From Eledone cirrhosa (lineage: Eukaryota): a stretch of 64,000 nt of DNA. Positions 278 through 46,235 of the stretch are shown here, in pieces (positions within the stretch are counted from its first letter, which is position 1; every line of letters begins with the position of its first letter). A program made the translations under genes and the position numbers. Under the pieces are notes generated by a model. That model saw only the letters and a list, made by a program, of their open reading frames with translations, was not told where the DNA came from and did not search any database. Location: assembly GCA_964016885.1 (NCBI GenBank), contig CAXHJY010001432.1:13277-77276 (forward strand). The letters run 5' to 3'.

Positions 278-410
278 AATAGCCGTCGAAACGGCTTGAG
301 CTCTGCCGTCGGGGTCATACTTTTTCCTATTTCCCACTCTACTACCCTAAGTATTGAGTACTCTGGTGCGTTATGGTCCATTTGGTTCCTTACCACAATT
401 CCTTTGTTAT
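278..410 (+). repeat. Short pLTR-like repeat (family A) carrying the 3' half of a hammerhead
   Basis: agccgtcGAAACGGCttgagctctGCCGTCgggg...cttaccac. Homologous copies at ~32172, 33700, 34035, 43260, 45813 and 46036. Embedded in (TA)n. Confidence 0.75.
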
Positions 411-1370
411 ATATATATATATATATATATATATATATATATATATATATAATTTAAAAAAAGGAAAAGAATGGCTTCTCTTGTAGTTCTAAACAATTTA
501 ATTAAATTTATATTATAATTTTACAATGTGGTTTTTCTGATCTAGTAAGTTCTTTTTTAACTTCGGCGGAGAGATATTTAAAGATTCCTGATTAACTTTC
601 CTGGTTAACTCATAGCAAGGGAGATAAAAAGAAAAACATAAAGAATTGAAAGAAAGAAAAGCAGAAGATATGATATTTCTTTCTGAGCTTACGTGTACAT
701 ATGGTTTTGTAATTTCTGTTTACATCTGCTAGTTTTATGAATAATACCTGTTCCCTTCCCCACTGCTGCTAATAAAACTATAAGTTTAGGTAGGAAATTA
801 TGTCATCACGATTAGATTAGTTAGGTGCCAAATTCTGACACGGAGAACGATCCCCAGTTATGTTTATTTATCAGTTTAATCTCTAATTCTCCTGTTTTTC
901 TTATTGAAGTTATTGTAGTAGTTGTTGTCGTCGTTAGCTTTGTTTTTTTTTGTTTTTTTTTTGTAAAGTGATTTTTGCACGCTGGCGTTATGAATCACTA
1001 AAACAATGAACTCACACACACACACACACACACACACACATACACACACACACACACACATATATATATATGCTTGTGTTTGAGTGTGTGCGTTCATATG
1101 CATATATATATATATATGTGTCTGTGTGTGTGTGGAGAGAGAGCGAGAGAGACAGAGAGCGAGAGAGTCTGCAATGCTGAGACCAGGGAACATGAACCGA
1201 TACCGCTTGGCGCCGCAGTTGGGATTATACATCTCTCTCTCTCTTTAGAGATTGTTTTAGTAAAAACAGGAGTAAGCAGGAGAAAGCTCTCAACATTCGT
1301 AGTTTTTAGTTACGATGAAGATTTTTATAAAACTAAAAATAATAATGCTGATGTTACATAAATCGTTTAA

Positions 1371-1457
1371 TCATTATAATTATTTCCACGGTTCTCCATG
1401 CAATCGACAAGTCCTTTATACATTTGTTGTTGTTATGAGAACGGTTTCCTCAGATGA
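1371..1457 (-). ncRNA. Type I hammerhead ribozyme motif, long stem II
   Basis: Minus strand: tcat-CTGAGGA-a-accgttctc...gagaaccgt-g-GAAA-T-AATT-A-TA-atga. 4-bp stem I, palindromic stem III loop, AUA cleavage triplet. Confidence 0.6.
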
Positions 1458-1946
1458 AATCCGATTTAGCGATATGCTGCCGACAGGAAAAAACACACGT
1501 CCTTCTGCTCGTGTGTACAGGATATATATATATATATATATATATATATATATATATACATATATAAATTCAGCGAGAATCGCATTTCGGCGGGTAGAAA
1601 AAGCGAAACGAAACGCAAAATCAGAGTTATGCTGGCAAGCGCTGAATAGTTAAAAAACCAGAGCTAAACATATATGTTAAAACGCCATATATATATGTAA
1701 TTCAGAGTTCCTGAATTTTTTTCATATATATATATATATTTAAATATAGGGGGAATGTTTAGATCTAGGTATATATATATATATATATATTGTTATGCTT
1801 TGGGAGGGTCATGTTGCTAATAAGAAACACACGCACCAGTAGCTTTCACTTCAATTTATTATAAGTTAAATTTATAAATTTAGGAATTTATAAATTTCCG
1901 GTTGGTTAGTTGGTTGGTTCCACAGCCAGACGATTGTTCATATATT

Positions 1947-1989
1947 GTCAAAGTTCTTTCGTCACACATTCTGTGACCTCTTCAGTGAC
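1947..1989 (-). ncRNA. Hammerhead motif in the inverted pLTR copy
   Basis: Reverse complement of the motif at 5054-5096. Confidence 0.55.
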
Positions 1990-2203
1990 TGGGGATTCTT
2001 TTCTTTGTTTTTGTGCCTCTCCTTTGTTCTGTCCTACGCCATCTTGTTTTTGTGTGTGTTGTGTGCTTAGTTTGCGCATGTGTTACATCCGGGTGTCTGT
2101 GTGTGTTTATATTTGTTTATTTATTTGTTTATTTACATGCTATTGGTTGGTTGTTTGTTCTATGTGTGTGTGTGTGTTTTCATTTTGTCCTTAATTATAA
2201 ATT

Positions 2204-43415: not shown

Positions 43416-44208
43416 ATATATACATGTCTATTTATGAAATGCATGTATTTATCTCTATTAAGGTAAGGATACATTTATGTATGTATGCAGCTATCCGTAT
43501 ATGTGTATGCATATGCATATATGTATGCATCATGTATTTATGTACGCATCTATGTATGCATGTATGTATTATGTATGTGCATATGTAAGTATGTGAGTTG
43601 TTCATGGGTGATTTCATTTGCTTTTATAGATCTATCAATGCTTGTATGTATGTATGCATGTACACACATATAAATACACACACACACACACACACACACA
43701 CACACATATATATATACATGTGTGCTTGTCTGTGTGAGTACATATGTATGAATATGTTTGTATGTCAACTGAGCTATCAAATCACATAGGCTGATAATAT
43801 TCAGATAGGGTAGTGTAGTTCAAAAGAAAAATATAATAAGTGTGACAGAAAATATAAGACTGAAAAGTTATTAAAACTCTCTGATCTATGGGGTTGTCTG
43901 ACTTAATTGTAATTCACCCGTGAGTGAAGGACAAGTCATCCATACAGTTGTGACTGTGACGAAATAGATGCGCGGAAATGGCTGTTAATGCATGACTACA
44001 CCACACACACACACACACACACACACACACACATATATATATATATATATATATATATATATATATATATATTATATATATATATTATATATATATTATA
44101 TATATATATAAGAGATGTCAACGTAAATGGACCTGTTATTTTTCTCTAAAATAATTTTCTCCGATTCCGTTCCGCCTGTCCCTTCAATCTTTATAATCTC
44201 TCATTCTT

Positions 44209-44244
44209 TCTTCTGATGAAGGACTAGCGTCCGAAACGTTAAGA
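44209..44244 (+). ncRNA. Minimal type I hammerhead motif
   Basis: tctt-CTGATGA-a-GGAC-tagc-GTCC-GAAAC-GTT-aaga. Flanks are homologous to the reverse complement of 14960-15100. Confidence 0.75.
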
Positions 44245-44454
44245 CCCTCCTTCTGCTATTTCAAGCGTTAACCTAATATATTACTTCCATATACTGTACC
44301 GATTGTGTTGTTGTTTCTGTTTACCTTTTACACACACACACACACATATATATATATATATATATATATATATATATATTGTTATACTTGGGGAGGGTCA
44401 TATAAAAAACCTCGCTAAACTATATATATATATATATATATATATATATATACA

Positions 44455-45785
44455 TATAAATGAAATAACAGTAGGCTGGACTGGTGTAAAAAATGTTTAA
44501 CTCGATAAGATATTAGAATGGGATATAGAGTAAAGGTTTCGATTGGGAGGCCCAGCCAGCACACCCACCACCATGAGTCAGCCAGTTTCGAGTGGTATCG
44601 TCCAGCGAAAGAAATGGAAATTAATTTTTCCGAGTACTCTAGGAACGTAGCTAACTTTGGCCCCGGGATCCCTAGCGGGAACTCCACAATTTCGACAGGC
44701 CATCGTCTATACCACGAATACTATTACATCACACATGAGGGGTTTATTTACGTGTCAGTGGAGGCATGACACAGCTAATAGTCATGCCTAAACCTGGAGT
44801 TTGTAGGTACAAGTACAATGTGGCGGCCAAAACAGGCGGCGCGGTGGGACCGGGGCAAAGCCGCCGCTCCGAGTAATTCCCGCTAGGGATCCCGGGGCCA
44901 AAGTTAGCTACGTTCCTAGAGTACTCGGAAAAATTAATTTCCATTTCTTTCGCTGGACGATACCACTCGAGACTGGCTGACTCATGGTGGTGGGTGTGCT
45001 GGCTGGGCCTCCCAATCGAATTCTTTACTCTTTATCCCATTCTAATATCTTATCGAGTTAAACATTTTTTCCACATAAGACTCTCTCCGTAAGTTCATTA
45101 AATAAATAAATCTCGCTACCTCTATTTTTCAATTTACCATTTTGCAATTTAATATTTTTAATTTAATTTAATTTCATCCTATAACTCGCAACATAAGTTT
45201 AACGTTCCAATCTTCGGTTCACACATTAGACCATACAGACACACATTATAGATTCTTTGGGTAGCATTTTTTTCGCGGCATTTTCTAACATGAATGTAGT
45301 TTGACCCTTACACTACACTTCTTTCTCCCTTTCTTTCTTTCTTCCCCTTCTTCTTTGACGGAGTGGTGGTAGTACATTATAAGCCTTCGGCCCCTCACTA
45401 GATATTCACTGGTAGTTTTCAGTTGCCAACACTTTGAGGGCGGCTGGCTGCGAAGCTCGTTGGTCAGCCGTCCTCTCTGTCTTTGGTTTCTCGGACCCAT
45501 GGCTTTTTACATATTCCTTTGTTATATTCCAATACCTATTGATATCACCGGATTCATATGGAACCCGGTCATTGAAATGATCATAGTATAATAAACCTTT
45601 CAAGGATTTACACCAGTCCAGCCTCCTGTTATTTCATTTATAATTAACTCCGTATTCGCACCACCAACTACACAAACGAAGATGGGTGAACTGCACTGCG
45701 TTGAGTACTCTTCACAATATTACACCAGGATTGACCATACGGAATGACTAGTTCTATCCAGTGGTGAACCAACAAACCTAAAGAT
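44455..45785. mobile_element. Unclassified element with nested inverted repeats, inserted in (TA)n
   Basis: About 44488-44682 is inverted at about 44876-45070. About 44456-44490 is inverted at about 45607-45642. Confidence 0.55.
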
Positions 45786-46035
45786 ATATATACATATATA
45801 TATATATATATAACAAAGAGAGCGTCAGAGTACTCAATAATTAGGGTAGTAGAGTGGGTAATTGGAAAAGAGTCATATATATATATATATATATGACTCT
45901 TTTCCAATTACCCACTCTACTACCCTAAGTATTGAGTATATATATATATATATATATACTATTATACACACACACACCCATATATATATATATATATATA
46001 TATATATATATATATATATATATGTATATGTATGG

Positions 46036-46235
46036 GGAAATGTTCAAGACCCCAACAGTAGAGCTCAAGCCGTTTCGACGGCTATTTCTGGAGTTCAGAA
46101 ATAGCCGTCGAAACCGCTTGAGCTCTGCCGTTGGGGTCTTGAACATTTTCCTATTACCCACTCTACTACCCAAAGTATTGAGTACTTTGGTGCGTTATGG
46201 TCCACTTGGTTACTTACCACACTTCCTTCGTTTTA
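46036..46235. repeat. Family A fold-back palindrome centred on hammerhead stem II
   Basis: Arms 46036-46091 and 46094-46151 are complementary. Confidence 0.78.

Follow-up and report, generated by a model that had tools for sequence, protein, structure and literature searches.

A family of probable Penelope-type 3' stubs in Eledone cirrhosa with clustered 5' breakpoints and palindromes that may arise by joining of paired cDNAs

Introduction

In Penelope-like elements (PLEs), a tail-less, inverted and 5'-truncated copy lies head-to-head with a tailed copy (Craig et al. 2021, PMC8557442, cited here from excerpts of text and supplement); the origin of these inverted ends is still open and is assigned there to a future in vitro system. 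In this study, we analyze a short repeat of this kind, family A, in 64,000 nucleotides (nt) of Eledone cirrhosa DNA (assembly GCA_964016885.1, contig CAXHJY010001432.1, positions 13,277 to 77,276 of the forward strand), referred to as the window. An earlier note on the same DNA had proposed that reverse transcription stalls at a ribozyme hairpin of family A and that the complementary DNA (cDNA) then primes itself. Our findings suggest a different origin: family A would consist of short 3'-end PLE stubs, whose palindromes result from head-to-head joining of two short cDNAs at insertion. We put this reading at slightly below six in ten.

Three further systems are relevant. For the Poseidon element PAc of Anolis, in vitro work revealed that two reverse transcription start sites define the tail, that both strands are nicked and extended, and that uncleaved RNA is used, such that the resulting copies extend across the site of cleavage (Frangieh et al. 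2024, PMC11167929). PAc belongs to another clade and host than family A, and no 5' breakpoint hotspot is reported for it in the portions of that paper seen. Penelope of Adineta vaga shows 18- and 38-bp palindromes at head-to-head junctions, for which self-priming was proposed (excerpt of Arkhipova et al. 2013, PMC3846280); in family A, by comparison, the centres occur in mirror-image forms and arms stop at a second site of priming, which speaks for the joining of two cDNAs. Non-LTR retrozymes (excerpt of bioRxiv 10.64898/2026.07.22.740005) resemble family A in being non-coding, PLE-derived and hammerhead-related, but differ from it, as family A has neither tandem units nor a complete ribozyme.

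With the PLEs described by Craig et al., family A shares head-to-head tail-less and tailed copies, strong 5' truncation and (TA)n targets. The tail is longer, 77 nt against 30-40 nt, only the 3' half of a hammerhead is present in the stubs, and the arms are nearly equal, giving perfect palindromes. The Hydra-clade PLEs in the supplement are alike in (TA)n preference, and their hammerhead, located about 100-170 nt before the 3' end and with a stem III of 4-5 bp, is comparable in place to the hammerhead-like 3' half of family A; all but one of the Hydra families listed are marked (TA)n, and GAGCACT-like motifs lie near several consensus ends. Family A differs from them in that neither CTGANGA nor an open reading frame (ORF) is seen, and none of the family A 10-13-mers used as queries was found in the supplement. 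A literature search, with most subscription papers outside its reach, returned no paper joining Penelope inverted ends with twin priming, which does not show absence from print; for hammerhead stem II and truncation in PLEs, it returned PMC11167929 only.

Results and Discussion

Family A Loci and Their Arms

With one family A arm as query, BLAST identified seven loci in the window, which is AT-rich, animal-type DNA rich in (TA)n. All seven are embedded in (TA)n. Their features are as follows.

278-410, plus strand: solo copy; the 5' end AATAGCC abuts (TA)n, the 3' end is tailed
32172-32260, plus strand: degraded copy; 5' end TAGCTG, preceded by a T run
33696-33819, minus strand: copy with internal deletions that includes 3 nt of natural upstream sequence (TAG before TCCAGA)
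34034-34093, minus strand: inverted tail-less arm of the 34035 palindrome; stops at the inner 3' end (TTCCTAT plus (TA)n)
34094-34231, plus strand: tailed arm of the 34035 palindrome, with 3 nt fewer at the junction than in 43258
43255-43276, minus strand: short inverted arm of the 43258 palindrome, about 22 nt, through GAAAC; origin of the apparent 5' strand of stem II
43277-43412, plus strand: tailed copy; reference onto which reads were aligned
43274-43285, plus strand: breakpoint hotspot in reference-equivalent positions; 5' ends of 9 of 11 window arms
43286-43301, plus strand: 6-bp hairpin of the natural sequence, AGCCGT-CGAA-ACGGCT, with folding predicted for both RNA and cDNA strand; would sequester GAAA
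43293-43320, plus strand: hammerhead-like 3' half with GAAA, stem III ACGGC/GCCGT, GTC and stem I-like GG(G/A)GT(C/T)
43336-43412, plus strand: optional 77-nt tail between the two 3' ends; contains TTGAGTACTCT at 43359
45812-45938, both strands: seventh locus, head-to-head arms with a (TA)n spacer; 5' ends at 45874 (minus) and 45895 (plus)
46032-46092, minus strand: inverted tail-less arm of the 46036 palindrome; stops at the inner 3' end
46093-46236, plus strand: tailed arm of the 46036 palindrome; G centre

The motif GAA-ACGGC-loop-GCCGT-C-GGGGTC was recovered wherever the earlier note had placed it, in degraded form in the copies at 32172 and 33817. The palindromes at 34034-34149 (91% arm identity) and 46032-46154 (89%) are likewise genuine. 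The copy at 43258, described as starting at the base of the hairpin, turned out to be a third palindrome (43255-43297), whose short left arm extends through GAAAC. The copy at 33696-33819 adjoins a palindrome of another repeat, family C, an inverted pair with a one-sided tail (33818-34003) that is joined directly to it; a related piece lies near 16219.

Pattern scans for family A gave three loci in metagenome contigs, one in genome contigs and none in viral sequences. The four contig loci were rejected as relatives: their alignments cover only 17-26 nt without TA tracts and represent chance matches. An octopus repeat library may already include family A.

The Hairpin of the Palindromes Is Probably Not Natural

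Public reads and contigs were aligned to 43228-43416 for 4 of 14 listed runs from three organisms: raw restriction-site-associated DNA (RAD) reads (X12) and contigs (X1) from organism A, and contigs from organisms B (X5) and C (X6). Loose ends that do not match the reference before 43277 occur in 1325 reads of X12, in 191 contigs of X1, and in one contig each of X5 and X6. Their consensus terminates in TTTAG in all four runs; it reads TTATTCACCAGGCTAAAAATTCTAATTTAG in X5, to which the X1 consensus is similar, and ATTTAAATACCAGGATAAATTTTCATTTAG in X6. These 30 nt of natural upstream sequence are AT-rich and unrelated to the reverse complement of the right arm, and the left arm reaches only 0.6-2.0% of plateau depth in X12 and 2.2-3.7% in X1.

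Thus, the 16-bp "stem II" is made by inversion, and the earlier assumption that stem II with its loop is natural no longer holds: copies running past the centre enter unrelated sequence. As the 5' strand of the hairpin is found only in inverted copies, citing this hairpin as the cause of inversion is circular. Moreover, the natural 17-nt cDNA end at the centre has no predicted fold, and self-priming at this site is therefore impossible. CTGANGA is absent from the 30-nt loose ends of the four runs, which corresponds to 46 nt above GAAA.

Two 3' Ends and Class Membership

The 5' ends of family A vary, and its 3' ends are fixed at two sites separated by 77 nt. The inner end, TTCCTAT followed by (TA)n at 43335, is represented by 2897 and 1321 reads, with the plateau at about 12,600 reads; the outer end is at 43412. 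The inverted arms of the 34035 and 46036 palindromes both terminate at the inner end. Family A thereby reveals several traits of PLEs, namely fixed 3' ends with variable 5' truncation, insertion into (TA)n or AT-rich DNA, and an inverted 5'-truncated copy with a tail at one end only (34035, 46036). In line with the earlier view, it is a PLE-type element and not a fixed-end miniature inverted-repeat transposable element (MITE).

A reading as foldback element or MITE with terminal inverted repeats was rejected, since there are no fixed terminal inverted repeats, solo stubs dominate, arm lengths differ and junctions vary. A Helitron was considered because of a minus-strand hairpin followed by CTAA, and dismissed in the absence of a TC start and because copies extend past the hairpin.

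The parent was probably Hydra-clade-like, as suggested by the TA target and a shared tail motif. This motif, TTGAGYRCTCT, has three of its matches in family A; those at 12701 and 20195 lie downstream of hammerhead cores of other families (the ribozyme at the 20195 site did not pass the stem II filter), and that at 45701 is without a ribozyme. A likeness of the upstream frame to Hydra C-termini (H-x-x-K) was too weak to count.

A Narrow Hotspot of 5' Ends

The breakpoint hotspot in family A is real. Nine of 11 arm 5' ends, from six of the seven loci, map to 43274-43285 of the 43258 copy, a span of about 12 nt located 1-12 nt upstream of the natural 6-bp GC hairpin. The exception is the locus at 45812-45938, where both arm 5' ends lie downstream of the GC block and the break is at about the equivalent of 43322. 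In simulations with an 11-nt window, slightly narrower than the observed span, the probability of six of seven loci clustering is 0.0003 under uniform lengths of 30-140 and 0.01 if copies must reach the GC block. The earlier statement that six of seven copies break in ribozyme stem II is hence retained as to clustering and abandoned as to the site, since the stem II in question is an inversion product.

Read data show the same position. First-mate-plus depth in X12 falls by 8% over 43297-43288 and by 43% over 43288-43281; the first-mate-minus column was set aside, as its jump at 43285-88 tracks alleles of a TTAA-site subfamily and is probably a restriction-site or library effect. Among the 15 joints listed, from a total of 31, opposite-strand joints account for 13, and 11 of these touch 43277-8. 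Their far sides are scattered over 43281-43374, several of them within the AT-rich patch that follows the GC block. This other AT-rich patch also contains the break of the seventh locus and a second group of joints (43319-43342). Breaks on both flanks of the GC block fit release after a structure, TA microhomology, or both.

Junctions and a Proposed Mechanism

The three window palindromes have nearly one centre, and their junctions are not identical: C in 43258, G in 46036, and 3 nt missing in 34035. Reads add further variants at 43276: a G centre, seen in 18 of 152 reads and at 27% of X1 depth, losses of 2 or 3 nt, and an insertion of TGAG; organism C has a similar centre. The C and G centres mirror each other, which is what the joining of two cDNAs predicts when either partner may be the longer. 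Fold-back from one RNA loop should produce a single polarity, whereas both occur.

Each long inverted arm aligns best with its own partner, at a score of 98, whereas the remaining five arms do not exceed 86 and 84, and arms within a locus have locus-private variants in common. Together with the differing junctions, this indicates that inversions arise repeatedly, as the earlier note had held. Paired priming fits better than fold-back, as both long inverted arms terminate at the second site of priming.

We propose the following course of events. The enzyme of the element would nick both strands of a TA tract, and each start site would prime one cDNA, giving two in all. Reverse transcription would traverse the 30-nt GC-rich structured block and tend to release in the AT-rich patch just past it, perhaps aided by a hairpin forming in the cDNA or by easy TA pairing. 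A single cDNA end joined to the target would leave a solo stub; two cDNA ends joined with 0-1 nt of microhomology would yield a near-perfect palindrome, with the 16-bp "stem II" as the presumed product of this joining.

Other Hammerhead-Bearing Elements

A descriptor search revealed six complete type I hammerheads in the window. Elements used for comparison are the following.

12345-12773, no single strand: family D, with a tailed arm and an inverted arm that lacks the tail; its hammerhead at 12565 is complete, and the arms meet about 35-50 nt upstream of the core
1787-5239, plus strand: near full-length broken PLE with reverse transcriptase (RT) motifs, a C-terminal GIY-YIG domain and a minimal hammerhead at 5058; inverted 5'-truncated copy at 1787-2228
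34295-34500, no single strand: family B inverted pair, resembling the natural upstream sequence of family A weakly (65% over 74 nt, E 0.024), with a 7-bp hairpin GGCTAAA/TTTAGTC

In the PLE at 1787-5239, whose GIY-YIG domain has a Pfam E-value of 2.4e-4, below the cut-off, the inversion junction is about 240 nt upstream of the hammerhead core. Both this element and family D invert outside stem II, which is thus not a general site of PLE inversion in the window. The earlier idea of a general mechanism for the inverted pseudo-long terminal repeats of PLEs conflicts with these two elements. In family B, the junction falls on the 14-nt self-complementary ACGTACATGTACGT; a CTGATGA on the other strand was rejected as a hammerhead half for want of a GAAA partner. 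Protein searches with two GIY-YIG frames of the window gave no match. Other hammerhead or near-hammerhead PLE ends, belonging to different families, were noted at 44213 (plus), 15083 (minus), 20297 (minus) and 8412 (plus).

In family A itself, GAAA, stem III and NUH are present at 43293-43315, and in loose-end variants the loop changes while the stem stays. GAAAC...GTC occupies the position of the hammerhead 3' half in related elements, as had been claimed, and the reported lack of CUGANGA is borne out: in all eight arms tested, no CTGANGA with at most one mismatch occurs within 120 nt upstream of GAAAC, bar one match overlapping GAA itself. At E-values up to 1, no hammerhead family was among 132 Rfam matches, a search that missed the complete hammerheads too; the matches in the window are microsatellite-driven and below gathering scores. 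Permuted type II or III hammerheads on either strand, twister or hepatitis delta virus (HDV)-like folds and a UUA cleavage site at the centre were dropped by inspection.

Weighing the Explanations

Several points weigh against our reading. No parent ORF was found, and membership of family A in the PLEs rests on DNA features. The tail motif was picked after its matches had been seen, which limits the count of 6 in the window against 0.08 expected. The upstream view extends over 30 nt with low consensus agreement (0.45-0.48) and a single contig each for X5 and X6, and palindromes may be under-represented in the sequencing data. As the natural homology of the reference ends at 43277, clipping inflates the joint pile-up and some of the depth drop. 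If the run-on past GAAAC averages only 10 nt, the simulated probability of six of six loci clustering rises to 0.13. Folding of whole stubs is not significant against shuffles (z -1.0 to +0.5), and the short arm of 43258 does not stop at a priming site. Gene conversion between arms could mimic their identity within a locus, and a point change at the centre could mimic part of the junction variation. Finally, a type I hammerhead in the window at 12895-12990 (minus strand; 12978) has 55 nt between its cores, with a long stem II and internal loops; accordingly, the CUGANGA of family A could lie further upstream.

This last observation leads to the rival that a parent carried a complete type I hammerhead whose long stem II keeps the cores more than 46 nt apart, RT pausing at the 3' foot of an apical hairpin GGCTAAA/TTTAGTC. 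Breaks would then lie within stem II, though not in the hairpin of the earlier note, and joining after paired priming could still take place. Besides the hammerhead at 12978, it is favoured by the universality of canonical hammerheads in the Hydra clade according to the excerpts of PMC8557442, by the distance of the family A GTC to the tail motif (44 nt; two other families have 55 and 88 nt), and by the 7-bp hairpin in the X5 and X6 loose ends and in family B, whose 3' foot coincides with the palindrome centre. This hairpin is weak, however (-5.5 kcal/mol; z -0.83 in family B), neither CTGANGA nor GACCCC is seen in the 30 nt of natural upstream sequence, and the AGCCGT/ACGGCT hairpin would sequester GAAA. 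Moreover, these 30 nt may be the end of an ORF, as TAG/TAA variation at 43285-87 resembles a kept stop codon. We consider this parent rather doubtful. That RNA structure, either a very long stem II hammerhead or the GAAA-sequestering hairpin, programs the RT stop site is an unlikely proposition as well.

Clustering could also be inherited from one or a few amplified non-autonomous masters, either already palindromic or starting near AGTCCAGA, in the manner of a MITE. The nearly common centre of the three window palindromes and TGAG or GAG before TCCAGA in several joints agree with this, and one palindrome read from either side could yield both centre polarities. Locus-private variants common to both arms, at least five junction forms, the lack of fixed inverted termini, and the small minority of exact palindromes among many copies that extend into natural upstream sequence make such masters improbable. 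As to the literal proposal of the earlier note, in which a 16-bp stem II that is already present stalls RT, and the cDNA primes itself after folding back, the hotspot is real, the arms were copied from the same template, and self-priming has been suggested for PLE junction palindromes (excerpt of PMC3846280). Nevertheless, it is largely refuted and by far the least credible reading: natural upstream sequence lacks the 16-bp hairpin in four runs, the cDNA end has no predicted fold, and a single-nucleotide centre cannot serve as a priming loop. In addition, centres of both polarities are found, inverted arms run to the second site of priming, and inversion in the control elements took place outside stem II.

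High-copy family A has two priming sites, junctions that mirror each other and a narrow hotspot of 5' ends, and provides many natural events to separate paired priming from fold-back. Architecture and the self-priming idea are already published and the ribozyme link is only putative, such that the surprise is modest. If a structure does set the stop, paired priming would make a retrotransposon end a recurrent source of short perfect hairpins across the genomes of several related species, hairpins that could provide RNA editing with double-stranded RNA. Such a structure-set 5' stop would be the first to be mapped in a PLE.

Other Features of the Window

A minus-strand fragment at 6103-6630 combines a Cys-rich stretch with GIY-YIG-like residues just after an ATG and is possibly a Naiad-type remnant; no Pfam or homolog match was found for it. 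In the octopus Naiad consensus 3' ends (PMC8557442 supplement, excerpt), GAAA precedes CTGATGA, and the complements GACACC/GGTGTC, ATGG/CCAT and CTGCCC/GGGCAG are arranged around GTA; by eye, these ends could be a scrambled hammerhead.

Other long hairpins, several with (TA)n flanks, are located at 58482-58715, 59142-59386, 52280-52363, 11459-11619 and 33544-33689, and a 198-nt inverted repeat (97% complementary) with a GC-rich spacer of 195 nt at 44484-45074. A long interspersed nuclear element at 16862-20005 includes endonuclease-like frames and a 713-aa RT frame (RVT_1 E 5e-28). A tandem array of about 9 kb with a 45-bp unit extends over 21625-30397. The hairpins followed by CTAG in (TA)n at 62-88 and 8612-8655 are presumably Helitron-like 3' ends.

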